Shown here in pieces: positions 37,921-64,000 of a stretch of 64,000 bases of DNA. Both the position numbers and the translations under genes were made by a program. Below the pieces are notes generated by a model, which did not search any database, was not told where the DNA came from, and saw only the letters and a program-made list of their open reading frames with translations. Each line of letters starts with the position of its first letter. Position 1 is the stretch's first letter. This DNA is from an uncultured Ignavibacteriaceae bacterium (GTDB taxonomy: Bacteria; Bacteroidota; Ignavibacteria; UBA10030). The stretch spans positions 325,190-389,189 of the forward strand of contig CAZOMY010000001.1 of the NCBI GenBank assembly GCA_964581115.1, given 5' to 3'.

Positions 37921-40007
37921 CGGATGATCGCCAGTTTGCCGATCTTCGTGCCCAACGGAGATTCGACGTGATAGATGTAGATGCCGCTCTCAACGAACTG
38001 GCCGAAATCGGTCAGCTGGTCCCATGCAACAATGCCACCGAAGCCATCGGGCACTGTCAGCGTCTTGACAAGGTCTCCTCGGACGGTGTAGATACGGATC
38101 GCGGCAGGATTGGGGATGTTGACGAACTGGATCTCGTCACCCTGCGTCGGCTGGGAGAAGCCTTCGCCGATCACGTACGGGTTGGGGACGACGAGAATGC
38201 CGTCGAGCGATGCCGACGCCGGCAATGTCATTTTGAATGGCGCCGTGGTCCGGTTCGCGAAGATCGACGATTCCAGCGGAGGCACGCGATTGCTGCCGGT
38301 CTCCGGGAAGATGGCCGACGGATTCACCGGCCAGGAGGCTTTGCCCGTGTCGTAGGCCGTCACGGCATAGTAATAGCCGGTCCCGACGTCTCCCGTCGAA
38401 TCGATAAAGGCATAGCGTCCCGTCGTCCCCGTGTAGAATTGCGGATCGCCGCGGGCGACCGTTCCGATCGGTTCCCAGGGACCGATCGGGAGGTACGAAG
38501 AGCGATAGATTCGGTAGCCGGCGAGGTCGAACGTGCCGTCATCGGGGTCGGCCAGTGATTCGGTCTCCGTCCCCCACGAGATCGACGTGGCAGCAAACCC
38601 GGGCCGGTCGCGAAGATACTCGAGCGTGAATGAAGGCGCGGCCGGTGGATCCGGATGGTTCAGCCCGGGCCGGCTGGCGAGCCGCGATTGATCGTACGTG
38701 AACTGCGCTTTGCGGGCCGTCGTCTGGAAGATCGTCGAACCGGCTCCGATGCTCGCCTTCGAGGCTGACGGGTTGACGACGACGCTGTAGTCGACGCCGT
38801 CCACGACCTCGGCTAGAGCGATGACGACCGAGTCACCCGGCGCGAGATTCCACGGGCCGATCGACATCAGCGACCAGACGCGTGTCCTCCGCATTTGCAG
38901 GGTGTCGGAGGACGAAGCGATCGGATTCGTGGCGTTCGCCGGATCACGGAGGACGTCATACCTTGACTCGAACGTCGCCTTGCCAGTAAACGGGCCTCCC
39001 TGATCGATCGACGGACTGCCCCCCGACCACGCGATCTTGTTGACGCGCGAGGTCTGTCCGAACTTGTTCGGACTGGCATAAAGCAATTTGACACCCACAT
39101 GCCCGGGAGCAAGCCATTCGCCGGTCGGGTCGCCGTTCGCGCTGATGGGCCCCTGGGTGCGCGACCGCATGTACTCTTCATCCTCTGGCGTATCAAGATA
39201 ATCGCCCGAGCGGGCCCACATCATGTTGTAGGTCGGGTGGTTCGGGTTTGTGCTCAGGGGACCGAAATGGTACGTGCCACGGGCCCCGGAGGGCAGCGTC
39301 GGAAAGAGGACGGTCCATGCCCGGGAATTGACATGCAAGCCATAGACGGCCAGGGCGTAAAAGTCAAAGAGCGTGTCCTGCACGGCACGCGCCGTGTCGA
39401 GCAGGCGTATCTCAGCAGAGATGTTCTTGAAGCTGTATTCGTGAATGATGTAGTTCTCGTCGCGTTTTGACCCGCTCCATTGATGCGACAGCCGGCTCAC
39501 GCGCAACGGCAGCTGGCGCTCCCGGTCATCGACACGGTTGTAGTTGAGGTTGTACTCCCACGAGGTCTCGATGACCTCCTCCCCCGTCCGTCCCGACGTT
39601 TTCAGGTGGTGGTTCGCTCCCCCCGGATACAGGTGACGGTGCTTCGTCACGATGTACTTTGCACTCGCTTCGTTCGCGATGCTGCTGGCATAGATCGCCC
39701 AGTCCTCGACCGCGAAGACCGAGTCGGCGTCCTTCTTGGCACCGACGTAGAAACCGCCGGTCACGAGATGCGACGGCGGACCACCGATGTCGCGAGCGAT
39801 CCAGGTGTCGTCAAACCCGGGCCAGTCCAAGCCGATGCCCCGGCGTCCCCAGTTGCTGTAGACCGGGCCAACCTTGCCGGCCTGGAGACTGTGCCAAAGC
39901 ATCCCCCGGCGAAAGCTCAGAATGGGAGACTCCACCTGCGCGACGGCATCGGACATCGCAGACGCGGCCAGCAGACCCAAGATCAGATGACGGAGGTTCG
40001 TTTGCAT
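37917..40007 (-). CDS. Secreted protein with a variant T9SS C-terminal sorting domain (type-B-like or divergent type-A), encoded in the SusD position after a TonB-dependent transporter
   Basis: 696 aa. The SPI-type signal peptide is LILGLLAASAMSDAVAQ, with no lipobox cysteine. The C-terminal ~90 aa are VVPNPYV...IRIYTVRGDLVKTL...WDQLTDFGQFVESGIYIYHVE...GTKIGKLAIIR. This matches the T9SS CTD architecture (PN.F/Y, IY..RG.LV, WDG...G..V.SG.Y.Y, G.K.G.L.IIR). The ATG overlaps the TBDT stop. Confidence 0.65.
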   Translation of the reverse strand: MQTNLRHLILGLLAASAMSDAVAQVESPILSFRRGMLWHSLQAGKVGPVYSNWGRRGIGLDWPGFDDTWIARDIGGPPSHLVTGGFYVGAKKDADSVFAVEDWAIYASSIANEASAKYIVTKHRHLYPGGANHHLKTSGRTGEEVIETSWEYNLNYNRVDDRERQLPLRVSRLSHQWSGSKRDENYIIHEYSFKNISAEIRLLDTARAVQDTLFDFYALAVYGLHVNSRAWTVLFPTLPSGARGTYHFGPLSTNPNHPTYNMMWARSGDYLDTPEDEEYMRSRTQGPISANGDPTGEWLAPGHVGVKLLYASPNKFGQTSRVNKIAWSGGSPSIDQGGPFTGKATFESRYDVLRDPANATNPIASSSDTLQMRRTRVWSLMSIGPWNLAPGDSVVIALAEVVDGVDYSVVVNPSASKASIGAGSTIFQTTARKAQFTYDQSRLASRPGLNHPDPPAAPSFTLEYLRDRPGFAATSISWGTETESLADPDDGTFDLAGYRIYRSSYLPIGPWEPIGTVARGDPQFYTGTTGRYAFIDSTGDVGTGYYYAVTAYDTGKASWPVNPSAIFPETGSNRVPPLESSIFANRTTAPFKMTLPASASLDGILVVPNPYVIGEGFSQPTQGDEIQFVNIPNPAAIRIYTVRGDLVKTLTVPDGFGGIVAWDQLTDFGQFVESGIYIYHVESPLGTKIGKLAIIR

Positions 40008-43000
40008 CAGAAGGTGAACCCGACGGAAAGGAAGATCTGGCGTGGGATGTTCCGGTACGCCTTGTACGGCGCCGCGATGTAGCTGAGCCTGAGCGGATCA
40101 TCACCCGGGTCGGCGACCGTGAATCCGCGTTCGACCCAGTTATTCCGGTCCACTTGTCCGTCCATCGGCGTCAGCCATTGGTTGTTGAACAGGTTCATGA
40201 TGCGGGCCCCCAAGACGATGTCGCGGTCCAACAGGCGCAACGTCTTGACGATATTGACGTCGACGCTCGTTTCAAGTGGATACCGCCGGTTGTACAGCAC
40301 GTCCTGCACGTCGAAATCGGTCACGTAGGTGAACGGAAGTCCGGACTGTGCGGCGTACGTGAGGCTGACGGACGTGTTCGCGAACGGCCGGACGCCCGCG
40401 ATCTCGGCTCCTTCGTCGTGACCCAGCCGGTACTGCACGAGCGCCCGGAGCACATGTGTCCGGTCCGACGGCGACAGGAATTCACCCGTGAAGTTGCGCG
40501 ACGCGAAAGCGGTCACGCCCTCCGGGAACTGCTCCTGCGGACCGTAATTCCCTTCCGTCGTCTGCGAGAGGTTGTAGCTGATGCGATAGTGCCATCGCGA
40601 CGGCGAGATGCGCTCGAACGTGATCTCGAGACCGCGCGTCGAACCGAATGCATTGTTCGCGAAGGTCGTATACAGATAGAGCGGAGTATTGTCGGGCAGA
40701 ACGCCCCGCGGCCGGTCGGCGCTCCCCGTCAGGGCCGCCACGCGCAGCAGTCCCACCTGGCTGACGCGGTCGTTGTAATACAAGGCAACATCAAATCGAT
40801 GGTCCTCATTGACGACCTGCTGAACACCGAACTCGTAATTGATCGTCTTCTTGGGCTCGAGGTTCGGATTGCCCCGGCCGGTCCAACCGCTTTGTGTCCG
40901 CTGCGAGAGGCCGTGTGCGAAGATGGGCATCGATGCAAAGTGGCCGTATTGTACCCGGAACGCCGTGTTCTCGCCGATCGGGAACGAAAGACCCAATCGC
41001 GGCATAAGGACCGTACGGGTCGCCGACGGCTCGGTCGACGGGTCGCCGACGGTACTCGGACGAACGTTGTTGCTGAGCGTCCCCTGGTAGAACGGGTTGA
41101 AGAGGTCGACGGCGACGTCCTCCTGGAAATTGTATGCCTCCGCACGCAATCCGATGTTCGCCACGAGCCCTTCGTACTCCATCTTATCCTGGACATACGC
41201 CGACAGGAGCCACGGATAGGCCCTGTAGTATTCGGCAAATCCGGACCGGAAGAGATAGGAATTCGCCTGGAAGGAGGAGTTGACGCCGTTGTTGACCATG
41301 TCCCAGTAGTAGCCCCGGATGCCGACCTTAAAGAGGTTGGTGGACGTGGCCTGATCGGTATAGTCGACCGCGATCGAGGCGTGTTCCGTCCGGTTGTACT
41401 GGTAGTAGTTCGTACTGAAGTTGAAGGGCTCACGGAAATACGACCCGTCCCACCAGACGCCTTGCCGCAGCACCGTCCCCGAGGCGTCGTTCAGGCTGTC
41501 GAGGCGATCGCGAGCCGACTCATAACCGGCCAGGTATTCGTACGGCAGCTCATACGACTCCACTTGGTGTGAGGCCGTGAGTTCGATGAACGAATGCGTA
41601 TCGATCGTGTAGACCCAATTGAAACTCTGGGTAAAGGTCTCTTCCGTCCGGACGGGGTCGGTCTTGATGTAGTACTTCGTCGAGATGCCGGGAGGACTGA
41701 ATGCGAGGCCCGACCAACGGATGTCATCGGAACCCGACCAGATACCGCCGCGATACCGTTGGTACATGGCGAGCAGCTTGAATTTGTGCGCTCGTACCGG
41801 CGTGTAGATGACGTTCGTCAGATAGTTCTGGAACACGAGGTTCTGTTCGGCAGTCGGTAGTCGCGTCGGCGCGTTGCGGTACTCTCCCGAGAAGAAGAAG
41901 CGCAGGAGCTCCGGGTCGCGCGTCAAGGGTCCGCCGAATCCGATCAGATAGCGCGTATACATCCCTTTCCGGTAATCGTAGACGCCGAGCGCATTGTCGT
42001 CGGCGGGCGTATGGTTCTTGAGCCAGATGTCATATGCCCAAGCCGCTTCTTTGAGGACCACGTCGCTCCATGCCGCCGAGTCGGCTCCCGTCGCGGTTCC
42101 GGTCTGGTACATCTTGTTGTACAACGCCGACGCACGCGTGTTGAGGCCCAGCTGGTCGGCGATCAATCGAAGGTCGCGGATCCAGTAGTCGAAATCGCCC
42201 CATCGCTGCCACTCATAGCTGTTCCGGTCGTAGACATACGGGCCGAAGTGATACTGCCCCGGAGGCCGCATCTCAACGCGGAATTCGCCGTTGAAGCGCG
42301 GGCCACCCTCCTTGGAAACCACCTTCACGACGCCCGCCTGCGCGTTGCCGTACTCGGCCGAGAAGCCGCCCGAGATGAGCTGCACCTGCTGGACCGCCAG
42401 CGGGTTGACGTCAAATTTCCACGAGTTGTCCGCCTTGCTGGTTCCGAACGAGCCCGGGGCCGTCGTCGATGCATTGATCTGTTGGACGCCGTTGATCTGG
42501 TAGTTGACCTCGTAGGCCCCCGAGCCGCGCACGCTGTAGTTGCCTTGCGCGTCCTTCTGGAAGCCGGCGACGAGATCGAGCGCACCTCGAATGCCCTCCA
42601 TCGGCGCCGACTTCAGCTGGGTCTCGCTGATGCTCTGGGCGGTCGAGGTCTGATCGCGGATGATCTTCGGCCGCTCAGCCGTCACCACCACTTCCTTCGC
42701 CTCGATGGTGGCGTCTTCCATCTGCAGGTCGATGTTCGTCGTCCGGTCGATGTCGATCTCTACGCTCCGTACAGAGACGCGATTGTATCCAAGCATGGAG
42801 CCGATGACGGTGTACGTTCCCGGAGGAATGTTCAGGATCGTGTATCGACCCTCGAAATCCGTGGCCACGCCGAGCGTCGTTCCTTCGAGGAAGACGTTCG
42901 CTCCGATCAAAGGTTCTCGGGTCCGGGCATCGACGACGCTGCCCGACAGCTTTCCACGCTGGCCCTGGGCTTGCAGCGGCCCGAGGCACACGGCCAGCAC

Positions 43001-43048
43001 GGAAAGGGCGAGAAGAAGGCGGTGTCGCACGGTCAACTCACTTGACAA
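40007..43048 (-). CDS. TonB-dependent transporter, SusC/RagA-like (CarboxypepD_reg N-domain, plug, 22-strand barrel)
   Basis: 1013 aa. The signal peptide is followed by KLSGSVVDARTREPLIGANVFLEGTTLGVATDFEGRYTILNIPPGTYTV, a carboxypeptidase-regulatory-like domain. The plug region and a long barrel follow. The C-terminus is the typical ...SVGFTF. The start is TTG at 43048. Confidence 0.88.
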   Translation of the reverse strand: MSSELTVRHRLLLALSVLAVCLGPLQAQGQRGKLSGSVVDARTREPLIGANVFLEGTTLGVATDFEGRYTILNIPPGTYTVIGSMLGYNRVSVRSVEIDIDRTTNIDLQMEDATIEAKEVVVTAERPKIIRDQTSTAQSISETQLKSAPMEGIRGALDLVAGFQKDAQGNYSVRGSGAYEVNYQINGVQQINASTTAPGSFGTSKADNSWKFDVNPLAVQQVQLISGGFSAEYGNAQAGVVKVVSKEGGPRFNGEFRVEMRPPGQYHFGPYVYDRNSYEWQRWGDFDYWIRDLRLIADQLGLNTRASALYNKMYQTGTATGADSAAWSDVVLKEAAWAYDIWLKNHTPADDNALGVYDYRKGMYTRYLIGFGGPLTRDPELLRFFFSGEYRNAPTRLPTAEQNLVFQNYLTNVIYTPVRAHKFKLLAMYQRYRGGIWSGSDDIRWSGLAFSPPGISTKYYIKTDPVRTEETFTQSFNWVYTIDTHSFIELTASHQVESYELPYEYLAGYESARDRLDSLNDASGTVLRQGVWWDGSYFREPFNFSTNYYQYNRTEHASIAVDYTDQATSTNLFKVGIRGYYWDMVNNGVNSSFQANSYLFRSGFAEYYRAYPWLLSAYVQDKMEYEGLVANIGLRAEAYNFQEDVAVDLFNPFYQGTLSNNVRPSTVGDPSTEPSATRTVLMPRLGLSFPIGENTAFRVQYGHFASMPIFAHGLSQRTQSGWTGRGNPNLEPKKTINYEFGVQQVVNEDHRFDVALYYNDRVSQVGLLRVAALTGSADRPRGVLPDNTPLYLYTTFANNAFGSTRGLEITFERISPSRWHYRISYNLSQTTEGNYGPQEQFPEGVTAFASRNFTGEFLSPSDRTHVLRALVQYRLGHDEGAEIAGVRPFANTSVSLTYAAQSGLPFTYVTDFDVQDVLYNRRYPLETSVDVNIVKTLRLLDRDIVLGARIMNLFNNQWLTPMDGQVDRNNWVERGFTVADPGDDPLRLSYIAAPYKAYRNIPRQIFLSVGFTF

Positions 43049-53348: not shown

Positions 53349-53451
53349 GTCGACAGGGCATAGCGGAGGCTTCGCTGGCGACTTCTCTCATTCACCCATG
53401 AGCATGACCTGTGGGGTTAAACGAAGCGGGCCGGCGGGCGTCCAATGTTGT

Positions 53452-56331
53452 ATGGGCGTGATCCGATGGCGTGTTTCTCGAGTATTCTGGCTGGTCGCCG
53501 GCATGACAGCCATGGCATCGTCGCAAACGGCCGAAGTGCTGGGCCGGGTCGTCGACTCCACGACAGGGACGGGCATTCGGGATGTCTCTGTCATGTTGCG
53601 GCGAGATGATGGTCCTTCGTTGCCTCTCGGCACGATCACTGCACCCGACGGTTCGTACCGGTTCGGTTTCGTCGTATACGGCCGATACCGCCTCATCCTG
53701 AGCCATATCGCCTGTGACACGCTCCGTCGGTCGGTCTTCATCGGCGCGTCATCGGTGGACCTCGGAACGTCGCGGCTTCGGGAGAGAATGGTACCCGAGA
53801 GGGAGGTTGTGGTACGTGGTGTGCCGCCGCCGGTCGAGCAAATCGGAGACACGACGCAGTTTTACGCCGACGCTTTTGCAGTGAACAAGGATGCCAGCGC
53901 GGAGGATCTCGTCTCCAAGCTGCCAGGCTTAACGATGGAGGGCACGAGCGTGCGTTCGCAGGGTGAGGACATCCGGCAGGTGCTCGTTGATGGCAGGCAG
54001 TTCTTCAGCGACGATCCGATGATCGCCCTGCGCAACCTCCCCGCTGAGATCATCGAACGGGTGCAAGTTTACGACAAACTGAGCGATCAGGCGGAGCTTA
54101 CGGGCTTTGACGATGGCCAGTCGGTCCGGACGATGAACATCATTACCCGTCTGAATCGAAGACAGGGCATGTTCGGCAAGACATCGGGGGGCTACGGTAC
54201 CGATGCCCGGTACGCCACCGTGGGCACGGTGCACGACTTCGACAACGACAGGCGCCTCTCGTTGTTCGGGATCAGCAACAATGTCAACCAGCAGAACTTC
54301 ACGATGCAGGATATCCTGGGTGTTCTGCGAAGCAACACCGCCGGACGCGGCATGTTGGGCGGAGGCCGTTTCGGCGGAGGACTCGGAGGACAACGACCCG
54401 GCGGCGGACGGGTGCTGGAGATGCTCTCGAACGCGGCGGTCCTTCAGCGCGGAGCGGCGGGACTTGCCGACTTCCTTATCGGCGAGCAGGGCGGTCTCAA
54501 CACGACGCACTCGCTCGGCGCCACGTATGGCAATGCGTGGAACGGCGGCTTGGAGCTCAACGGCAACTACTTCGTCAACCGCGTCGAGCATCGCGCGTCG
54601 GAGACGCTTGAGCGGGTCACGGCAACCACCAACGCCGATTCGGCACGCGTCTACGCCGAAGAGAACGAGGCCCGCAACGCCAACACAAATCACCGTGCCA
54701 TGCTGCGCACCCAGGTCCCGATCGACGAGCTGACCACGCTCGTTGTGCATCCCCGGTTCAGCGTCCAGGTGAACGAGGCCTCTGACCTGACCTTTGGACG
54801 CAATGCGATCGGATCAGCGCTCCTGAACACGTCGGAGGTTTCGTCGAGCTCCCAGAACGACGGCTGGAACGGGTCGTTCACGGCGGTCATGCGGCGCCGG
54901 TCGGACATCCCCGGTCGATCCTTGTCGGTACAGGTCGCAGGATCCTTCTCCGATCGGGGCAGCGATCGTTCGATGGAGGCTTCGACAGCCTTCCCCGCTG
55001 CCGGCGGCGGCTCCGCGACGATCGTATCGCAGAAAAGCACCCGCGCCAGCTCCGGTTCGACAGTCCGCGGCTCCGTGACCCTGACCGAGCCGGTCATGGT
55101 CAACGGTCTGGTTCAGGCCACGTACGCGGCGTCGACCTCCGGATCGTCAAGCGAACGTCTCACGTATGCGCTCGATTCCGTCACGCAGACCTTCGCGATC
55201 CTGCGCAACGATCTCTCAAGTGAAGGAAAGAACCGGGAGACCTCGCACCGCGCCGGTTTCGGATTTCGCTACGGAAGCCCCGATGGCTTCCGGGCCATGG
55301 TATCCGCCGATGTGGAGTGGGCTCGTATGTCGGCCGATCTTCGGATCCCCGTCGCCGAGCGGGTCAATCGCCGTTTCCGCACATTCCTTCCGATCGCCTC
55401 CGTGAGCTATAGGTTCTCCGGACTCGCCTCGGTGCAGGCGCAGTTGCGGTCGTCCACGCAGACGCCCTCGGCTACTCAGCTTCAGCGGGGGGTTGACAAT
55501 ACCAATCCCGTTCAACTGACCACGGGGAATCCGAAACTGGCGCAATCGGTTGTCACCTCATTCATCGTGCGACTGGGCCTTCCAAATCCTCTCGCGATGA
55601 CCAGCGTCTTCGCGACGCTGATCGCTTCGGAGACGAACGACGCGATCGTGAATGACGTAACGCTTGCTTCGGCTGATACAACATTGCCGGGTGGCATCGT
55701 CCTCCACCCCGGGACTCAACTGACGCGGCCGGTCAATATCGATGGCCAGCGCTCACTTCGGGGATTCCTGACCTACGGATTCCCGGTCCACTGGCTTGGA
55801 AGCAACCTGAACTTGATCGCGGACATCACAGCCAGCAGAACGCCCGCCGTGCTGAATGGCGCCACCAATTGGGCGATGGGGACCACGTATTCCGGCGGGT
55901 TCACGCTCGTCAGCACGTTCAGCCAAGATGTCGACCTGACCTTATCGTATGCCGGCAACCACACCACAAACACCAACTCGCTGCTGACGGCCTACGACGA
56001 GGCGTACGACTCGCATCGCGCAGGACTTCGCGCATCGGTTACTTTGTGGGACAACGTTGTTCTGCGCACAGATGCCACATACCGTCAGTCCTCTGGTCGC
56101 CGTGCTTCGTACCGGCAGGAGTACCTCGTTTGGAACGGAGGCATCGGCATCCGACTTTTCAGCCGAGGTCAGGGTGAGATCACCTTAAGTGTATTTGACA
56201 TCCTCGAGCAGAATACCAACCTGAGTATCAATACGACGGACCTGTACACGGAGACCCAGTCGACCAACGCCCTTGGTCGGCATTTTCTGCTGACGTTCAG
56301 CTACACGTTAAGGGCCTTCGACAGTATGTAG
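53452..56331 (+). CDS. Large outer-membrane beta-barrel protein, TonB-dependent-receptor-like (CarboxypepD_reg N-domain; OMP_b-brl_3-type)
   Basis: ~960 aa. The signal peptide is followed by AEVLGRVVDSTTGTGIRDVSVML...APDGSYRFGFVVYGRYRL, a carboxypeptidase-regulatory-like domain. A plug-like region is present (DLVSKLPGLTMEG). A long Gly/Asn-rich barrel follows. The ATG at 53452 was verified. Confidence 0.7.
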   Translation: MGVIRWRVSRVFWLVAGMTAMASSQTAEVLGRVVDSTTGTGIRDVSVMLRRDDGPSLPLGTITAPDGSYRFGFVVYGRYRLILSHIACDTLRRSVFIGASSVDLGTSRLRERMVPEREVVVRGVPPPVEQIGDTTQFYADAFAVNKDASAEDLVSKLPGLTMEGTSVRSQGEDIRQVLVDGRQFFSDDPMIALRNLPAEIIERVQVYDKLSDQAELTGFDDGQSVRTMNIITRLNRRQGMFGKTSGGYGTDARYATVGTVHDFDNDRRLSLFGISNNVNQQNFTMQDILGVLRSNTAGRGMLGGGRFGGGLGGQRPGGGRVLEMLSNAAVLQRGAAGLADFLIGEQGGLNTTHSLGATYGNAWNGGLELNGNYFVNRVEHRASETLERVTATTNADSARVYAEENEARNANTNHRAMLRTQVPIDELTTLVVHPRFSVQVNEASDLTFGRNAIGSALLNTSEVSSSSQNDGWNGSFTAVMRRRSDIPGRSLSVQVAGSFSDRGSDRSMEASTAFPAAGGGSATIVSQKSTRASSGSTVRGSVTLTEPVMVNGLVQATYAASTSGSSSERLTYALDSVTQTFAILRNDLSSEGKNRETSHRAGFGFRYGSPDGFRAMVSADVEWARMSADLRIPVAERVNRRFRTFLPIASVSYRFSGLASVQAQLRSSTQTPSATQLQRGVDNTNPVQLTTGNPKLAQSVVTSFIVRLGLPNPLAMTSVFATLIASETNDAIVNDVTLASADTTLPGGIVLHPGTQLTRPVNIDGQRSLRGFLTYGFPVHWLGSNLNLIADITASRTPAVLNGATNWAMGTTYSGGFTLVSTFSQDVDLTLSYAGNHTTNTNSLLTAYDEAYDSHRAGLRASVTLWDNVVLRTDATYRQSSGRRASYRQEYLVWNGGIGIRLFSRGQGEITLSVFDILEQNTNLSINTTDLYTETQSTNALGRHFLLTFSYTLRAFDSM

Positions 56332-56372: not shown

Positions 56373-58631
56373 CTACATCCTCCAGCGCACTCCGCCATAC
56401 ATCATCCGCCCCTGCACCGGTCCCCAGATGATCGAACTGTCGAAGTAAGGACTGGATGGATCGGCGGCCGAGATGATCGGATCACCCTGCCGGAAGTCCA
56501 GGAGATTCTCGACGCCCACATACAGATCCAGGTTCAGCAACAGCGTTCGGGTCACCTGACCATTGACCAGGAAGTAGGAAGGCGATGACGAGGGCCGGCG
56601 ATACGGCAGCGGACTCGCCGACGTCTCCGGCAGCCGCTTCGGTCCGAACCACGAGACCGTCAGGTCGTAGGCCATACGTCCGGAACCGTCGTCGTCAGGT
56701 TGCGTGGTGTAGGCCAGATTGACGAACGCCCGATGTTTCGCCACGTACGGCCGATCGCGAAGCTGGCCGTCGATCGTCTGCCGCACGTCCAGAAAGCGGT
56801 ACGCGGTGCGCACTTCGAACCGCTCCAACGGCTGGATGTTCAATTCGGCCTGTGCGCTATTCGAGAACGAAGAACCCGTCAGCGGCTGGAAGACGACCAT
56901 GCGCGCATCGCGGTCGAGATTCACGACCAGTTGATCGTCAAACGTCGTCCGATGCAGGTCGATCGTGAACGTCCCTTCGCGGCCATTCACCGTCACATAG
57001 CGCGTGGCGCTGAGGCCGATATTCCAGCCCGTCTCTCGATGGTACGCCATGCCCGGAGCCATTCCTTCGAGCGCCGGCGTCCGGGAACTCGCAAACAACG
57101 CGATGTTCTCCGCATAGATGTTCGCCGTCCTCTGACCCCGCCCCGCCGATAGGCGAAGCGTCCAATTGATGTCGGGCGCATAGCGCACATGCAGACGCGG
57201 GGAGATGAACGAGCCGAACAGATTGTGCCGGTCGCCACGCAGACCCGCAACGACCGAAAGGTCCTCGCCATGCGAGTAGGTGTACTCGACGAAGGCACCG
57301 GGCACCCGTTCGATCCGTGCATGGTCGGATCCGAACACCCGCTCATCGTAGTCATCCACAAGCAGACTAAGGCCGCCTCGCACCCGCTGGACGCCGGGTT
57401 CGATCTCCGCGTCGTAGAGCAGATTCAGGTATCCCGTCCGTTCTCTCCCGGAATACTCGCGGTGCTGGAGCGAAGTGGAGGTCCGATGATCCGCGGTGGA
57501 CCACTGAAGTCCGATGCTTCGCCCTTCGCCCTCGAAGACGTAGCCGGTCTTGCCGGAGATCCGCAATTGGCTTCCCCGCATACGATAGCGATACTGCAGC
57601 GGATCGGCCCCAAGCGCCAGATGGTCCAGATCGATCCCATGCATGGTGCCATTGCGCTTCTCATCAGATGTGTACTGCACGATCATCTGGCCCTCGACAC
57701 CCTCGAAGTCGTGCAGAGAGAATCGCTGCAGGACATGCGCCGCAGTACCGATCGGGGCGTCCAGAAACCGGTCGCCGTTTCGGTCCATCGACACGCGGCG
57801 AGTGTCCATGTTCACCATGGTCAGCGAAGACAGGTGCTCGCTGATCGGAGTCCGGAGGTTTCCGTTCAGCTCGAATCGTTGGTCATCGGTGCCGAACATC
57901 GTCAGGTAGACGCGCTGCTCGGCCTCGTTCCACGGTTTCCGGTACTCGACGTTGATCTGCCCGGTGATCGATTCGTAGCCGTTGGCCACCGAACCGACCC
58001 CCTTCGACACCTGGATGTTCTCGATCCAAGAGCCCGGGATGTACGTGAGGCCCACGTTGGAGGCAAGCCCCCGCACCGCCGGCATGTTCTCCAGCGTGAT
58101 CTGCGAATAGGTTCCGGCAAGTCCAAGCATCTCGATCTGCCGGGTTCCGGTGACGGCGTCGGTGAACGAGACATCGACCGACGGGTTCGTCTCGAAGCTC
58201 TCGGAGAGATTGCAGCAGGCCGCCTTGAAGAGCTCCTTCTCCGTCATCACGACCGTATTCGTCGTCGCCCGGTATTCTATGAAACTGGGCGCCCGTTGTC
58301 CGACGACGTTGACGGCATCGACCTCCGTCGCCTCGGAGACAAGCGTGATCCGCAGGACGCGCGGCTCGGCCACGGTCAGCGTGTCGGGCCTGAACCCGAC
58401 GCTGCTGATGACCAGCCGACCGCCGCCATCTTGGAATGCCAACTCAAACCGTCCCGCCGTATCGACCATCGTCCCGACCCGCGAACCGAGCCAGTAGACC
58501 GACGCGCCGACAACCGGGCGGAGTTGCCCCTCCTCGGTCCGTTCCACCACTCTCCCCTGCACGATCCCTGTCGATTGGGCGAAGAGCAGCGCGGGCACGA
58601 GGAGAGCGCTGAACAACCATGCGCTTCTCAT
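56373..58631 (-). CDS. TonB-dependent receptor (CarboxypepD_reg N-domain, plug, barrel)
   Basis: 752 aa. The signal peptide is MRSAWLFSALLVPALLFAQS. It is followed by GIVQGRVVERTEEGQLRPVVGASVYWLG, a plug domain (DAVNVVGQRAPS) and a barrel. The ATG was verified. Confidence 0.88.
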   Translation of the reverse strand: MRSAWLFSALLVPALLFAQSTGIVQGRVVERTEEGQLRPVVGASVYWLGSRVGTMVDTAGRFELAFQDGGGRLVISSVGFRPDTLTVAEPRVLRITLVSEATEVDAVNVVGQRAPSFIEYRATTNTVVMTEKELFKAACCNLSESFETNPSVDVSFTDAVTGTRQIEMLGLAGTYSQITLENMPAVRGLASNVGLTYIPGSWIENIQVSKGVGSVANGYESITGQINVEYRKPWNEAEQRVYLTMFGTDDQRFELNGNLRTPISEHLSSLTMVNMDTRRVSMDRNGDRFLDAPIGTAAHVLQRFSLHDFEGVEGQMIVQYTSDEKRNGTMHGIDLDHLALGADPLQYRYRMRGSQLRISGKTGYVFEGEGRSIGLQWSTADHRTSTSLQHREYSGRERTGYLNLLYDAEIEPGVQRVRGGLSLLVDDYDERVFGSDHARIERVPGAFVEYTYSHGEDLSVVAGLRGDRHNLFGSFISPRLHVRYAPDINWTLRLSAGRGQRTANIYAENIALFASSRTPALEGMAPGMAYHRETGWNIGLSATRYVTVNGREGTFTIDLHRTTFDDQLVVNLDRDARMVVFQPLTGSSFSNSAQAELNIQPLERFEVRTAYRFLDVRQTIDGQLRDRPYVAKHRAFVNLAYTTQPDDDGSGRMAYDLTVSWFGPKRLPETSASPLPYRRPSSSPSYFLVNGQVTRTLLLNLDLYVGVENLLDFRQGDPIISAADPSSPYFDSSIIWGPVQGRMMYGGVRWRM

Positions 58632-58643
58632 GACCGTCGCTCC

Positions 58644-59003
58644 TTAGTGGGTGGAATCGTTGTCGCGATAGAGGCAGCACCCCGGCAACGCGTCATAGAC
58701 CGAGTCCGGGGCCGAGAATTTCGGCGTGTCGTGTCCGACGGCGGCCAGCCGTTGTTGCAGCGAATCGACGGTGATGGCCGACGGACGATACGAAACGGTG
58801 AGCATCTTGGTCTGTTTGTTCCAAGAGGCCTTGTCGACCTCCTTGATCTTCATCGTCTTCTCGATGCGGTTCTTGCACATATTGCAGTTGCCGAAGACTT
58901 TGAAGGATGTTTCGACGACCTTCGTCTCCTGGGCAGCAACGACGAACGAGGCAACGAGCAGGGCGACAGTGACAGAAAGGATCGTTCGCATGATATTCCT
59001 CAT
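58644..59003 (-). CDS. Secreted heavy-metal-associated (HMA) domain protein
   Basis: A signal peptide is followed by an HMA-like fold, FKVFGNCNMCKNRIEKTMKIKEVDKASWNKQTKMLTVSY (a ferredoxin-like metal-binding domain with a C..C pair). A C-terminal GCC cysteine pair follows. ATGs at 59003 and 58991 were both verified as possible starts. Confidence 0.6.
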   Translation of the reverse strand: MRNIMRTILSVTVALLVASFVVAAQETKVVETSFKVFGNCNMCKNRIEKTMKIKEVDKASWNKQTKMLTVSYRPSAITVDSLQQRLAAVGHDTPKFSAPDSVYDALPGCCLYRDNDSTH

Positions 59004-59081
59004 GTTGAGTTTGATCGTTTGAGAATAGCACAACGCGACACCGTGCGGACGCACGCTGCCCTCAGACACGATCGGGACGAC

Positions 59082-59462
59082 TCAATTGAGGAACGAGCAG
59101 AAGAGAATGGTGGCCGGTACGGCCCGTGGGGGCGGAGAATCGGCTTGGGTGAGGGAGACGAGCGCCGGTTCGATGGCTGGCGCCTTGTCGACGAACGGGT
59201 AGACGACGTGCGAGGCCTCCAGCGTCACCTTGGGAGCGACGGCTGAGGCGAGTTGACCGTCATCCAACTGAAAGGTGGCAAGGTCAACCGTGCAGCAGCG
59301 GTCGGCTGGGTCCATAAGGTCAGCGCAGCCGCATGGATCTTCCTGGGTGACCGGCGCAAAATTGGCGTCCGTCGTCCCGCCGCATGAATGATGCAGGACG
59401 TTGACACCGATCGCCAGCCCTAGATAGATGGCCAAGAACGCTATGGAGAAGACTCGCCGCAC
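59082..59462 (-). CDS. Small Cys/His-rich membrane-anchored hypothetical protein
   Basis: 126 aa. An N-terminal TM (IAFLAIYLGLAIGVNVL) is followed by HHSCGG...CGCAD...DRCC. The start is GTG at 59462. It is the first gene of the operon with the HMA protein and the TonB receptor. It is weakly supported as a real gene. Confidence 0.4.
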   Translation of the reverse strand: MRRVFSIAFLAIYLGLAIGVNVLHHSCGGTTDANFAPVTQEDPCGCADLMDPADRCCTVDLATFQLDDGQLASAVAPKVTLEASHVVYPFVDKAPAIEPALVSLTQADSPPPRAVPATILFCSFLN

Positions 59463-59667
59463 GGATGTAATGTACGTGCCACTGGCGAAGGATGCAATGA
59501 ATGCAGAACTTGCGCGCCTGGCGTTGAGTTCCTTCGGCCCCCAACGCAGAAGCCCCCGGGGGTTCCCGAGAGCTTCATTTTACATCTTTCGTCTTGAATC
59601 GTACATCTTCTCACGGAAATGTTGTTTGCTGCTTCGCAGCATTGGTATAGGGCCTCCGGCTATCTTT

Positions 59668-59730
59668 CATCTTACATCTTACATCTTACATCTTACATCT
59701 TACATCTCACATCTTACATCTTACATTTCT
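59668..59730. repeat. Heptanucleotide microsatellite (CATCTTA)n, about 8 copies with one CATCTCA variant
   Basis: Direct reading of the sequence: catcttacatcttacatcttacatcttacatcttacatctcacatcttacatcttacatttct. The repeat lies in the intergenic region between the BNR/T9SS gene end and the Cys-rich/HMA/TonB operon start. Confidence 0.9.
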
Positions 59731-59734
59731 CCCG

Positions 59735-62700
59735 CTATTTCATCAGAACCATCTTGTTCGTCCTGACAAACCTCACCCCATCCGCTCCGACCGCTTCGAT
59801 CCGGAAGATGTAGAGCCCCGACGCCATGCCCGATGCATCCCAGCGAATTTGATGCTGACCAGCGCTCAACGAACCGTTCACCAACGTCGCCACCTCGCGT
59901 CCCAGCTGGTCGTAGATCTTCAGGCTGACACGTCCCTCCAGTGGCAAGGAAAATCGGATCGTCGTTGAGGGATTGAACGGGTTGGGGTAGTTATGTGCCA
60001 ATTCGAAGTCCGTCGGTTGTGAGTGGTCGACCTGCTCCACCGACGTCACTCGATCGAGCTGGCGAGCATAGAGATCAGCTCCGTAGACACCATAGATCAC
60101 ATTGCCCGAGATCCGCAGGTCCGAGGCTCCGAACAGCGGAAGCCCTTCCCTGACATCGGTCCACGTGACCCCCTTGTTGTTTGTCCGCCAGGTCCCGTAG
60201 CGGTTCGACACGATGACGGCGTTATCACTGATGGCCATCGCCTTGACCGTTTCATACTGTATGCCCTCCCCGCGCTCCATCCAAGATTGACCGCCGTCCG
60301 TTGAGACATAGAATCCCCCAGAGCCCGAGAAAACGCCTTTTGAGCCGAATGCACCGACATAGATCGTGTCGGCACGGACGATGATCCCACCCCAAGCGGT
60401 CGTGGGGCCAGCACTCACGGCAAGTCCTGTCCAGCCTGTTTCACCAGGTGTCCAGCGGTAAACGCCGGATAGATACGCAAACAACGTCGAACCCGAAAGT
60501 GTCACGGCCTTGGCATCTCCGGTCGCGATACCATCGCTTGGGGTGGCTCCCCAAGTTAAACCGAGGTCGGTGGAACGTCGCACACCTCCTCCAACGGTCC
60601 CTGCCAGGACCGTTGAACCCGACACGGCCAGGTCGTTGACGTCGGCGTTGATGCCGTAGGTTTTCTCTTCCCACGTGACGCCGGCATCGCTCGAACGATA
60701 CACGCCAGAACTGGCTGTACCGACGAACCAGATCCCGCCCCCGGTCTCGACGTCCCTCACGACACGAGAGAAGCTACCGATCGATCCTTGATTTGTCAGA
60801 GCCCATGAGCCTCCACCATTTGTCGAACGGAACACTCCAAAGCCATCACTGCCGACCAAGATCGTCGAACCGTCGACCGACATTTTCGTGAGCTTGAGCG
60901 CTCTCAATCCCCTCGAAGAACGGCTCCAAGATGCTCCTCCGTCCGTCGAACGATAGACCCCACCGCGCTCCACTCCGCTCGTGGCCGCGTACCATATGCC
61001 GTCCTTCGATGTCAGTTGCTGGACATACTTGTCGACCAATCCCGCATCTGACTTCACCCATGTCGCCCCGTCATCCGTTGACCGAAAGACTCCCGAAGCC
61101 TCATAGCCGAGCAGGTACGATATTCCGTTCGACCGCAGATCGTTGACCGTCGCCCCTGACGCACCTGTACTGTTCTGCCAGCTTGATCCACCATCGGTGG
61201 AGTACTTTGGCGAGGAATCGCCTCTCACGAAAGTTGTCCCGTTCGATGCCAGGAATTTCACGGAGCTGGTTCCCACGCTCGTCACCTGCACCCACATCGA
61301 TGAGCCGGCTGACAATTGGTAGAGCCCGAATGCCGTGCCTGCAAAGATTTCTTGGCCGTACTTTGCGAGGGTGTAGACGATGTTCGCCGATCCGGCGGGG
61401 ATTCCGGTCGAGAATCCCGTCCAACTCGAGCCACCAGATATGCTGCGAAAGATGCCATTGCTCGTCGCAAGATAGATCGTATCGCCCGATGCCACCATGG
61501 CGTTGATGCCGGATGCCGTGATACCACTGTTCACCGACGTCCACGTCTCGCCATGGTCCGTCGAGCGGGCCAATGCATTCGACGTCGTCGAACCATGATA
61601 GAGATGGCTGTTGACGACGAAGAGCTTTCCCGGATACGTGATCGGGCCCTTCGGCAGGAGCTGCCACGATGCCCCTGCGTCGGTCGACCGATACAGGCCC
61701 CGCCACGTCGTTGCCACGACGGCCGACGCTGTGGAAACGATCCCGTCGATCTCGCCGGCATCCGGTCCCGCGATCAAGGTCCACGAAGTACCGGCAACGG
61801 GAGGCCCTGACGTTCCTCCACCATCACCAGTCTCTCCCCCTCCCGATCCAATGGCCTGGAAGCTGAACGTTGTGGAATAAGGGGAGAGAATCACGCCTTC
61901 TTTCGCCCGAACGCGCCAGTAGTAGGTCTCTCCGGCCGTGAAGGGCCCGAAGGATACCGTTCCGGAATTTCCCGGCCGATTTGTGTCAGCAAAGACCACG
62001 TTCTGGAACAGGGAATCACGCGCCACTTGGATCTCAAATCTTGTCGAGAGCAAGGAGCCAGGTGTCCAGTTGAAGGTCACGGATGCCGCTCCCGCCGTAT
62101 CGCCGTTCAGCGGACGAACCAGATTCGGTCGCGGGTAGAGGTACTCGTATACAACTCCCACAGGTGTTGTGGTACCCGACACGGTCTCTGTGCCGTTCGA
62201 GAGCATCCAGGCTTCCGTCGGTCCAGCGAAGGCGAGGGCGCGTGGAGCGAAGTTGTTTGGAGCGAGACTCATCTGATACCAGGTGCGACCAAAATCCATC
62301 GTTCGGTAGATCCGGGAGCCAATGGCCACACCAAGGCCGACGGACGAGAACGAGACCGCCGTCAGGTTGGTGGACGTGCTGTTGAGAGTCGCGGGCTGCC
62401 ACGATACCCCGCCATCGGTCGTTCTTAGGATCCTCCCCGAAGATGTGAGCACGATGCCGGAATCGGGATCGAGCACATGCACATCCGTGATATGGCCGGG
62501 AGTTGGCAACCGGGTCGTGCTCCAATTCGCTCCGCCGTCGGTTGTTCGGAGGATGATCGAAGTGTCGTTCAGCGACTGATCCGTAAGCCACACGTGCTGA
62601 TGATCGAATACGCTGACCCGGTAGGTTCGTGATCCCTGTGGCACCGACACGGCATCCCATGATGCACCCGCATTGGTGCTGCGATACAGGTATCCGATCG

Positions 62701-63157
62701 GCAATTGACTCGTACCGCCGTACCCCACGGCGAAGGCCACCGATGAGCTCGCACGGCTGAATTCGAGGTCGGTGATATTCATGATCTCCGCCTGAGTGCC
62801 CGCCGACCACGACTGACCACCGTTCGTCGAACGAAGGAATTTGGCCGTTCCATCCTGGAAGGCTATCAGGGTCCCTGGAGCCGCAGGATGCGATGCCACG
62901 GCGTTCCCTTGAGACAGACCTGTCAGGTTCTCGAATCCGGCACCGATCATCCAAGGAGGGTCCATCGGTGTGTTCCGGATCTGGACAGGATACGCAATGC
63001 CCGGCGTCGTTGCTCCGATGATGAGGTTCGTGCGAGCACCCGTAAACTCGATGTCAGAGAATGTGAGTCCATACTCTCTGTGACGTTCGGTGAATTGCGC
63101 CTGTGCAAAGGAGACAAGAAACAGCAGCACGACGAAAAGTTGGATTGTCTTCAGCAT
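59735..63157 (-). CDS. Large secreted BNR/Asp-box repeat protein (sialidase-like/Ycf48-like beta-propellers) with a type-A T9SS C-terminal domain
   Basis: 1140 aa. The signal peptide is MLKTIQLFVVLLFLVSFAQAQ. About 16 Asp-box motifs S/T-x-D/N-x-G-x-S/T-W are present (STNGGQSW, STNAGASW, TTDGGANW, STDAGASW, STDHGETW, STDGGSSW and others). The C-terminus is HNYPNPFNPSTTIRF...GLYIFRIEAVGADGVRFVRTNKMVLMK. Confidence 0.8.
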   Translation of the reverse strand: MLKTIQLFVVLLFLVSFAQAQFTERHREYGLTFSDIEFTGARTNLIIGATTPGIAYPVQIRNTPMDPPWMIGAGFENLTGLSQGNAVASHPAAPGTLIAFQDGTAKFLRSTNGGQSWSAGTQAEIMNITDLEFSRASSSVAFAVGYGGTSQLPIGYLYRSTNAGASWDAVSVPQGSRTYRVSVFDHQHVWLTDQSLNDTSIILRTTDGGANWSTTRLPTPGHITDVHVLDPDSGIVLTSSGRILRTTDGGVSWQPATLNSTSTNLTAVSFSSVGLGVAIGSRIYRTMDFGRTWYQMSLAPNNFAPRALAFAGPTEAWMLSNGTETVSGTTTPVGVVYEYLYPRPNLVRPLNGDTAGAASVTFNWTPGSLLSTRFEIQVARDSLFQNVVFADTNRPGNSGTVSFGPFTAGETYYWRVRAKEGVILSPYSTTFSFQAIGSGGGETGDGGGTSGPPVAGTSWTLIAGPDAGEIDGIVSTASAVVATTWRGLYRSTDAGASWQLLPKGPITYPGKLFVVNSHLYHGSTTSNALARSTDHGETWTSVNSGITASGINAMVASGDTIYLATSNGIFRSISGGSSWTGFSTGIPAGSANIVYTLAKYGQEIFAGTAFGLYQLSAGSSMWVQVTSVGTSSVKFLASNGTTFVRGDSSPKYSTDGGSSWQNSTGASGATVNDLRSNGISYLLGYEASGVFRSTDDGATWVKSDAGLVDKYVQQLTSKDGIWYAATSGVERGGVYRSTDGGASWSRSSRGLRALKLTKMSVDGSTILVGSDGFGVFRSTNGGGSWALTNQGSIGSFSRVVRDVETGGGIWFVGTASSGVYRSSDAGVTWEEKTYGINADVNDLAVSGSTVLAGTVGGGVRRSTDLGLTWGATPSDGIATGDAKAVTLSGSTLFAYLSGVYRWTPGETGWTGLAVSAGPTTAWGGIIVRADTIYVGAFGSKGVFSGSGGFYVSTDGGQSWMERGEGIQYETVKAMAISDNAVIVSNRYGTWRTNNKGVTWTDVREGLPLFGASDLRISGNVIYGVYGADLYARQLDRVTSVEQVDHSQPTDFELAHNYPNPFNPSTTIRFSLPLEGRVSLKIYDQLGREVATLVNGSLSAGQHQIRWDASGMASGLYIFRIEAVGADGVRFVRTNKMVLMK

Positions 63158-63318: not shown

Positions 63319-64000
63319 CTACTTCATGAGAACCATCTTATTCGTCCTCACGAACCGAGCGCCATCCGCTCCGACCGCCTCGATGCGGAAGAAGTAGAGC
63401 CCCGATGCCATACCCGAGGCCTCCCAGCGGGCCTCGTGCATCCCCGCGCCCAGCGACCCGTTGACGAGCGTTGACACCTCACGCCCGAGCTGATCGTAGA
63501 TCGTCACGGACACACGGCTTTCCGTGGGCAGTCCGAACCGGATCACCGTCGACGGATTGAACGGATTCGGATAGTTCTGCGCAACATCGAACTCCGCCGG
63601 CACCGCCAGATCCAGTTCGGTGACCGATGTCGTAAAGTTACCCCAGACCGTCCGTGCCTGCTGGGCCGCGGACTGCAGTTGCGTGAGATCATCCGCCGCC
63701 AGGAAGGCGATGCCGAATCTCAACGTATCGCCCGGCGCCAGCGCGAACGGTCCGGCGGTCAGCTGATTGCGCGTGTCGCCAGCACCGACGGGGACCGCCG
63801 GAAAGCTTGTCACATTCGCCGTCGATCGGACAAACTGGTTGTCGTTCCCGATCAAGAAGACGGCATGACCCGCCACCGGATGACTCAACAGGGCAAAGCC
63901 ATAATAGGCGGGGTCCGAACCTCCGCCCTGCTCGAACGCGTACGTCAGACCGCGCGAAGCGTCATAACCACCCAGGTTTGCGCCCGAATTGCCGATGTCG
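63319..64000 (-). CDS. Secreted protein with a type-A T9SS C-terminal domain (paralog of the 59735..63157 CTD); 5' part lies beyond the window
   Basis: The C-terminus QNYPNPFNPSTVIRF...GLYFFRIEAVGADGARFVRTNKMVLMK is near-identical to the neighbouring gene CTD. I translated the minus-strand frame by hand and it remains open with no stop up to 64000 (…DIGNSGANLGGYDASRGLTYAFEQGGGSDPAYYGFALLSHPVAGH…). The gene therefore continues off-window. The track start at 63888 is only a TTG codon. Confidence 0.65.
   Translation of the reverse strand, partial: DIGNSGANLGGYDASRGLTYAFEQGGGSDPAYYGFALLSHPVAGHAVFLIGNDNQFVRSTANVTSFPAVPVGAGDTRNQLTAGPFALAPGDTLRFGIAFLAADDLTQLQSAAQQARTVWGNFTTSVTELDLAVPAEFDVAQNYPNPFNPSTVIRFGLPTESRVSVTIYDQLGREVSTLVNGSLGAGMHEARWEASGMASGLYFFRIEAVGADGARFVRTNKMVLMK

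Follow-up and report, generated by a model that had tools for sequence, protein, structure and literature searches.

A conserved three-gene module of a TonB-dependent receptor, a periplasmic HMA protein and a Cys/His-rich membrane-anchored protein as a candidate soft-metal importer in Bacteroidota and Ignavibacteriota

We analysed a 64,000-nucleotide stretch of DNA (the window) from an uncultured Ignavibacteriaceae bacterium (assembly GCA_964581115.1, contig CAZOMY010000001.1, positions 325,190 to 389,189), in which three co-directional open reading frames (ORFs) occupy positions 56373-59462 of the minus strand. In the order of transcription they encode a Cys/His-rich protein of 126 amino acids (aa) with a single helix (59082..59462, GTG start), a 115-aa heavy-metal-associated (HMA) domain protein with a signal peptide (58644..58991) and a 752-aa TonB-dependent receptor (56373..58631). 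The gaps between them measure approximately 90 nt and 12 nt, and the spacing is identical in the related locus L001. An earlier note on this DNA had described three co-directional genes with short gaps, a small protein with one transmembrane helix and HHSCGG/CGC/CC clusters, a signal-peptide HMA protein with two Cys pairs and a TonB-dependent receptor; the coordinates, ORFs, motifs and domains were all found as described, the Cys pairs of the HMA protein being CNMC and GCC. Since the same trio recurs in more than 70 other genomes, the arrangement lies far beyond chance. Homologues of the small protein start at the same position as its GTG codon. For the HMA gene, the mechanically called ORF (58644-59069) would encode 141 aa. 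Because its orthologues are 115 aa long in L001 and 114-115 aa long in most of 120 homologues, the real start is the ATG at 58991; an alternative start at 59003 would yield 119 aa.

The small protein (MRRVFSIAFLAIYLGLAIGVNVLHHSCGG...PCGC...RCC...SPPP...ILFCSFLN, including the motif NVLHHSCGG) begins with a membrane helix at residues 2-18 and continues as a small beta-sheet with loops that carry H25, C27, C44, C46 and C56-C57, followed by a variable linker, P111-P112 and the hydrophobic end ILFCSFLN. It had been thought to belong to no recognisable family and, taken alone, it gave no match in Pfam or NCBIfam scans, even at E≤10. Its relatives overturn that view. Precomputed annotation assigns PF26622, named DUF8199 in the annotation of L001, to the database protein P0001, which is 100% identical, and to six relatives of 60-73% identity; a local Pfam scan of the same proteins matched no family at E≤10. 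NCBIfam model NF047658 (HYC_CC_PP family protein) is matched by 41 of 48 homologues, with a best E value of 8.9e-15. An exhaustive search with a profile of its relatives recovered 276 cluster representatives at E≤1e-3, nearly all of them 120-140 aa long. When the 48 homologues were aligned, G19, C27 and C57 were invariant, and H25, C44, C46, C56, P111, P112 and the helix residue Y13 were kept in at least 90%. The protein thus shares with HYC_CC_PP and DUF8199 proteins their length (family approximately 125-130 aa), the N-terminal helix and the H-x-C, C-C and P-P motifs, the family-name motifs being kept as H25-S-C27 (with Tyr replaced by Ser), C56-C57 and P111-P112. Unlike the NF047658 type, its subgroup is divergent, with HHSC instead of HYC and an extra CGC, and by itself this subgroup gives no score with NF047658. 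Both families are catalogued without an assigned function. Conservation of Y13 and G19 in the helix hints at docking to another membrane protein.

The HMA protein carries an N-terminal signal peptide, MRTILSVTVALLVASFVVAAQE, with cleavage near VAA|QE, and three motifs: G-N-C36-N-M-C39-K-x-R-I-E (GNCNMCKNRIE), G86-H87-D88 (VGHDT) and L-P-x-C105-C106-x-Y-R (LPGCCLYR). Using phmmer against the PDB, we obtained a match to the two HMA domains of Bacillus subtilis CopA (1p6t, E=2.4e-8), in which GNCNMC aligned on the metal-binding GMTCAAC; the HMA domain of the zinc ATPase ZiaA (2ofg) was also matched (E=1.6e-5). Orthologues and fusion partners of the protein pass the Pfam HMA threshold with 28-37 bits. 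The HMA domain proposed earlier is therefore real, even though the window copy scores below the Pfam threshold. Among 118 family members, C36, C39, G86, H87, D88, C105, C106, Y108 and R109 are conserved at or near 100%, and the residue before the first Cys of the CxxC motif is Asn, Val or Ala. In the CopA alignment, H87 falls on the Tyr of the HMA 'GY' motif, a loop-5 position that adjoins the metal site of the domain. It may correspond to the Cu(I)-ligating His61 of Synechocystis Atx1, a tentative parallel drawn from this alignment position; BLASTP of the HMA protein against an Atx1 sequence gave no alignment. The NCBIfam models for MerP (TIGR02052) and CopZ (NF033795 and NF033794) scored 19.2, 20.2 and 19.5 bits, all below their cut-offs of 92.55, 91 and 95. 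Taken together, the protein resembles CopZ/Atx1-type and Cu-ATPase N-terminal HMA domains in homology and in the aligned CxxC loop. Unlike cytoplasmic CopZ and Atx1, it has a signal peptide and would be periplasmic, carries the additional invariant C-terminal LPxCCxYR motif, and partners an outer-membrane receptor to which it is often fused.

In the receptor, CarbopepD_reg_2, Plug (PF07715, 32.5 bits, threshold 23.9) and TonB_dep_Rec_b-barrel (PF00593, 66.2 bits, threshold 27) all exceeded their Pfam thresholds. A signal peptide is followed by a CarboxypepD_reg-like N-terminal extension (residues 24-100), a TonB-box-like sequence VDAVNVVGQR (residues ~103-113), the plug and a 22-strand barrel. 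VDAVNVVGQR was assigned by its likeness to Bacteroidota TonB boxes; V107 and G111 are invariant in the alignment, and confidence of the structural model, expressed as the predicted local distance difference test score (pLDDT), is below 35 there. The plug contains the invariant sequence ELFKAACCNLSESFETNPSVDVSFTDAVTGTRQIEMLGL, within an almost invariant segment that constitutes the family signature, ELFKAACCNLSESF(E/Q)TNPS(I/V)DVSFTDAxTGxxQIEMLGL. C139 and C140, the only cysteines of the receptor, lie in this most conserved segment of the plug and are invariant in the family. More than 7,798 homologues were found at E≤1e-20, many of them approximately 50% identical over the full length.

PDB sequence and profile searches with the receptor returned no close solved structure; only the N-terminal extension and early plug of Bacteroides TonB-dependent transporters were matched. 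In the AlphaFold2 model, the barrel is predicted with a pLDDT of 85-93. Foldseek searches with this model retrieved the whole superfamily of TonB-dependent transporters at 10-15% identity, TM-scores of 0.5-0.57 and best E values of ~1e-19 to 1e-20. PqqU, FepA, PfeA and BtuB lead the ranking, with ZnuD in 8th and OprC in 45th place (13% identity). Because this similarity is generic across TonB-dependent transporters, no substrate class can be read from it. Predicted extracellular loop 2 carries the motif D283-x-N285-G-D287-x-F-L-D291-x-P293 (residues 283-293, MDRNGDRFLDAP, at ~57755-57785), in which D287, D291 and P293 are invariant among 66 sequences and D283 and N285 are kept in at least 90%. 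The motif looks like calcium-binding DxNxD loops; the extracellular loops of BtuB hold a calcium-binding aspartate cage.

To follow the module across genomes, we scanned one genome per species for AACCNLSE together with QIEMLGL, which gave at least 595 stretches confirmed by tblastn. Synteny was counted on 80 loci, namely L001 and the best 80 loci of the scan less L022, whose motif variant is missed by the pattern; a profile of the small protein and the window HMA protein served as queries against the six-frame ORFs of these loci. They span Chitinophagaceae, Saprospiraceae, Cytophagales, Flavobacteriales, Bacteroidales, Sphingobacteriia and Ignavibacteriota. An HMA homologue is present at 79 of the 80 receptor loci. 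Its gene lies immediately upstream of the receptor gene in 41, is fused in frame to the receptor N-terminus in 32 (five of which have a separate HMA gene too) and lies immediately downstream in five, where Flavobacteriales show the order small protein, receptor, HMA. The small protein is encoded upstream of the receptor at 72 loci; at three of the eight loci without it, the upstream contig sequence is too short to tell. Pfam analysis confirmed the single-polypeptide order HMA, CarbopepD_reg, Plug and barrel in Chitinophaga sp. RAB17, Segetibacter koreensis DSM 18137 and Haoranjiania flava isolates. The conserved synteny and the natural HMA-receptor fusions bear out the earlier suggestion that the three genes form one functional unit, of which the window copy is an ordinary member.

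The fusions also bear on where the HMA domain resides. They place it N-terminal to the extension and the TonB box, which, given the established topology of TonB-dependent transporters, indicates a periplasmic position directly beneath the plug. A surface location, which the earlier note had allowed for, is therefore unlikely. Judged by sequence, the receptor is a family of its own, marked by the invariant AACCNLSE plug motif and travelling with its two partners; it does not group with siderophore or B12 receptors unrelated to its neighbours, the outcome that the earlier note had named as refuting its proposal. A vicinal Cys-Cys pair is found in all three proteins: it is invariant in the receptor and HMA families, and the small protein has an invariant C57 and a C56 kept in at least 90%.

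When all ORFs of the 80 loci were clustered, only the three module families were common. A Pfam census of the 144 immediately flanking genes returned 180 families, of which only Porin_10 (7 loci) and thioredoxin-like proteins (4-5 loci) were recurrent; no inner-membrane transporter, P-type ATPase, resistance-nodulation-division (RND) pump, regulator or cuproenzyme recurred in this census. Seven Chitinophagaceae loci (L011, L012, L014, L018, L038, L041 and L045) carry an expanded operon of Porin_10, small protein, extra HMA, TlpA-like redoxin and HMA-receptor fusion. There the Porin_10 gene stands in front of the operon, and the redoxin gene (WCxPC; Redoxin/AhpC-TSA, E values of ~1e-21 to 1e-22) is co-directional and lies inside or right after it. 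Two more loci have a similar redoxin gene nearby but outside the operon, convergent in L008 and ~1.9 kb downstream in L037. The linked redoxin suggests a need for reduced periplasmic thiols. Some extra HMA paralogues in the expanded operons contain one or two HMBD domains (PF19335, E=1.6e-22 and 5e-14); others end in metallothionein-like CC-rich tails, such as DCCKDGKCSKEGHDGKECC. In the fusions of L022 and L078, two tandem HMA domains, each followed by CC(K/L/Q)YR, precede the receptor part. One locus, L035 (CALRUG020000078.1), comes from a metagenome-assembled genome (MAG) labelled 'Synechococcus sp. UW140' and carries a module of Bacteroidota type. It is nearly identical to L043, from a Sphingobacteriia MAG, over the compared upstream stretch and the N-terminus of the small protein. 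The contig was probably binned into the cyanobacterial MAG by mistake.

The domains, synteny and fusions suggest that the module is a TonB-driven importer of a thiophilic (soft) metal with a periplasmic thiol hand-off, a reading that we hold to be rather probable. In this scheme, the receptor would draw on TonB and the proton-motive force to carry the metal over the outer membrane, either as an ion or in a small complex, and the invariant vicinal Cys pair of the plug would take part in its passage or release on the periplasmic side. The periplasmic HMA protein would then take the metal over, with the CxxC motif, H87 and the C-terminal Cys-Cys pair as candidate ligands. The inner-membrane-anchored HYC_CC_PP protein, with its His/Cys cluster (HxC, CxC and CC) at the periplasmic face of the membrane, may serve as the next acceptor or docking point; its role is the least certain step of the pathway. 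Since the module has no inner-membrane transporter, the metal may go to periplasmic or membrane cuproenzymes, or to an unlinked importer. As in the earlier proposal, uptake or hand-over, here of a soft metal, stands as the best reading. The genes with their domains, the conserved cysteines, the synteny, the fusions and the accessory redoxin and metal-binding domains are observed; which metal is carried, in what order and direction it is passed on and what the small protein does are inferred.

Copper is our tentative choice of metal, at somewhat less than an even chance. It is favoured by the CxxC type of the HMA domain, which was most similar to Cu-ATPase HMA domains in the phmmer search, by the HMBD domains, and by the lack of a linked inner-membrane importer, which fits envelope cuproenzymes. 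HMBD domains occur mainly in copper and silver systems. In its most specific form, the proposal would be a relay from Cys pair to Cys pair, passing from the plug to an HMA chaperone that is often tethered to the receptor and on to the HYC_CC_PP protein. Such a relay would deliver copper to envelope cuproenzymes without cytoplasmic passage, operate throughout Bacteroidota and Ignavibacteriota, be a type of outer-membrane metal import not described before and give DUF8199 a function; we consider this detailed version possible but speculative.

Several observations weigh against a soft-metal importer. The conserved extracellular loops of the receptor carry Asp, Asn, Arg and Lys, not Cys, His or Met, and no C...M or H.M pattern of the OprC-type CxxxM/HxM copper site was found in the protein. 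With no soft ligands on its outer face, the external ligand may be a chelated metal or something other than a soft metal. AlphaFold2 modelled residues 102-196, which comprise the TonB box, the first half of the plug, C139-C140 and the most conserved stretch, with a pLDDT below 35. Because this plug segment could not be placed, the periplasmic exposure of C139-C140 is putative; the low score may reflect an unusual plug conformation or too little variation in the alignment there. On the periplasmic side, the window HMA protein scored 20.6 bits against Pfam HMA (PF00403), below the gathering threshold of 24.8, and the small protein itself did not match NF047658 at E≤10. With a single helix and only ~3 cytoplasmic residues, the small protein cannot by itself transport or signal inward. 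Boxes for Fur, Zur or CsoR-type metal regulators, which the earlier note had in view, were not found upstream; among 70 upstream regions, no shared palindrome or k-mer was enriched above shuffled sequences and no shared operator emerged, and an Rfam scan of the window leader gave no match at E≤1 and thus no riboswitch. Lineage-specific regulators are possible. Finally, a literature search found no experimental or comparative description of the module, of DUF8199/HYC_CC_PP/PF26622 or of HMA-receptor fusions.

The same architecture could serve zinc (or nickel, cobalt or cadmium), as a TonB-dependent scavenging system with a Cys/His chaperone. This variant, which lies within the soft-metal importer reading and takes a share of its probability, we consider unlikely. 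The match to the zinc ATPase ZiaA is in keeping with it, and tetrahedral Zn(II) coordination would be compatible with a Cys2-His-Cys2 ligand set; ZnuD is the 8th structural neighbour of the receptor, though all TonB-dependent transporters score alike. The HMA family, however, has Asn, Val or Ala before the CxxC motif, not the Asp that precedes the first Cys of Zn/Cd/Pb-type HMA domains. The receptor lacks a His-rich extracellular loop like that of ZnuD, and the flanking-gene census linked no ZnuABC, ZIP or Zur gene to the module. Moreover, periplasmic zinc proteins mostly use His, Asp or Glu as ligands, not oxidation-prone thiols such as those conserved here. In a detoxification or sequestration system, the HMA and HYC_CC_PP proteins would bind toxic soft metals (Hg, Cd, Ag or excess Cu) in the manner of MerP and MerT, with the receptor acting in another role or in export. 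Vicinal Cys pairs are used by MerT and MerF-type proteins, the metallothionein-like tails look like buffering, weak NCBIfam matches to MerP and MerTP were obtained, and a TonB-dependent transporter, Oar, is reportedly needed for secretion (PMC6434023). Yet the MerP, MerTP and CopZ scores fall far below their cut-offs (19 versus 92-180 bits), and none of merA, P-type ATPases, RND pumps or MerR/ArsR regulators is recurrent in the flanking genes. Unlike mobile resistance islands, the module sits in the chromosome among housekeeping genes and has a very wide distribution, and TonB-dependent receptors are importers as a rule. We therefore give detoxification a low probability.

That the conserved features are all cysteines, and that a TlpA-like redoxin is linked in some lineages, would also agree with a thiol-disulfide relay that acts on a non-metal substrate or in maturation of the receptor, by redox exchange and not by metal coordination; vicinal Cys pairs can form strained disulfides. 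The putative HMA fold with its aligned CxxC, the HMBD domains and the metallothionein-like tails are, on the other hand, hallmarks of metal binding, and we know of no precedent for such a relay, which we regard as very improbable. An ordinary siderophore, haem or B12-type receptor standing beside two unrelated small genes is what source annotations would imply by naming the protein 'outer membrane receptor for ferrienterochelin and colicins', and weak NCBIfam matches to FepA- and CirA-type models point the same way. These matches are local (~70 residues) and far below their cut-offs, the receptor has no close solved relative beyond its N-terminal region, and the census of flanking genes provided no siderophore ATP-binding cassette transporter, periplasmic binding protein or Fur context. 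The partners are kept at 79 and 72 of the 80 loci and fused in 32. Synteny and fusions largely refute this reading, to which we assign only the slightest probability.

The module can be compared with several known systems. OprC/NosA, the copper receptors of Pseudomonas, are the closest analogy for the receptor step: both would be outer-membrane, TonB-dependent importers of a soft metal with a Cys-containing site, and both may supply periplasmic cuproenzymes without a dedicated inner-membrane partner. OprC/NosA bind copper through CxxxM and HxM motifs (PMC11213822). The module receptor lacks such a CxxxM-HxM site, and OprC, only a generic structural neighbour at rank 45 and 13% identity, lacks an HMA or HYC_CC_PP partner, an N-terminal CarboxypepD_reg domain and a vicinal Cys pair in its plug. 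For the HMA and HYC_CC_PP steps, the closest mechanistic analogy is the transfer from MerP to MerT, in which a signal-peptide CxxC HMA protein passes a thiophilic metal on to a small protein of the inner membrane whose vicinal Cys pair is located in the first helix or beside it. MerT, however, has three helices and leads to MerA, and the mer system has no TonB-dependent receptor, whereas the small protein described here has one helix and the module no reductase, and the MerP and MerTP models score 18-19 bits against cut-offs of 92-180. The module is thus a member of neither family. With SusC/RagA proteins the receptor shares the CarboxypepD_reg-like extension ahead of the TonB box. Unlike these proteins of ~1000 aa, it has ~750 aa and no adjacent gene for a SusD-like lipoprotein, its neighbours being the HMA gene and a convergent outer-membrane protein gene; the SusC/RagA model TIGR04056 matched its N-terminal part only, with 50.9 bits against a cut-off of 368.25.

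Upstream of the operon, the intergenic region (59463..59734, read on the minus strand) contains a GC-rich hairpin at ~59559-59590 (plus-strand reading) and a promoter-like motif. A sigma-70 consensus scan upstream of the small-protein gene revealed no meaningful promoter. In Bacteroidota loci, a TAnnTTTG-type -7 box, read by eye, lies just upstream of the small-protein gene, which therefore appears to be first in the operon. The window has the motif GGAACTC-N16-GTTCTG at ~59527-59499, starting 70 nt before the start codon of the small-protein gene (its start lying at ~59527-59532). Only the window and its five closest relatives (L001, L002, L004, L005 and L006) show this pattern, GGAAC(T/G)-N16/17-(T/A)GT(T/C), at 48-70 nt before the start. 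It may be a -35/-10 promoter of the extracytoplasmic function (ECF) sigma type; given the mutual relatedness of the six loci, this assignment is tentative, and no gene for an ECF sigma factor is found alongside. A perfect to near-perfect heptamer tandem repeat, (ATCTTAC) x 9.3 as read on the plus strand and GTAAGAT as read on the minus, occupies 59662-59726, between the upstream gene (stop at 59735) and the hairpin and promoter region. The window has no second such repeat, the orthologous intergenic region of L001 lacks it, and slipped-strand variation of the repeat is possible.

The genes flanking the trio in the window are unrelated to metals and encode an alpha-galactosidase, GHL10-type hydrolases, a ROK regulator, other TonB-type outer-membrane proteins and BNR/Sortilin-repeat proteins secreted by the type IX secretion system (T9SS). 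Further large outer-membrane proteins with CarboxypepD_reg and OMP_b-brl_3 domains are encoded at 53398-56331 (plus strand) and 40007-43048 (minus strand). The first of these, without a Plug match, is the gene that converges on the receptor gene, and a terminator-like hairpin is found near this junction at 56259-56281. On the upstream side, two T9SS-sorted proteins (59735-63157 and 63319-63888, both minus strand), the first a 1140-aa protein with Sortilin/BNR repeats, are nearly the same over their C-terminal 34 residues, with the common tail GMASGLY(I/F)FRIEAVGADG(V/A)RFVRTNKMVLMK, which suggests a recently duplicated or recombined sorting domain.

The three protein families were already catalogued; the module as a whole would represent a form of TonB-dependent metal uptake that has not been characterised before. 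It is widespread, found in at least 595 species-level genomes, and pairs a receptor of its own with a putative periplasmic metallochaperone, the two being joined in one chain in many lineages. Many Bacteroidota and their relatives depend on envelope cuproenzymes, among them cytochrome oxidases and clade II N2O reductase, and to our knowledge hardly anything has been described of how copper or another soft metal crosses their outer membrane. Should our interpretation prove wrong, these three genes would still make up a conserved unit of interest. If it is right, the module would provide a concrete candidate for this uptake route in Bacteroidota, a role for DUF8199/HYC_CC_PP proteins and, in the natural receptor-plus-chaperone single chains, a means of studying how a TonB-dependent receptor releases its cargo to a periplasmic acceptor.

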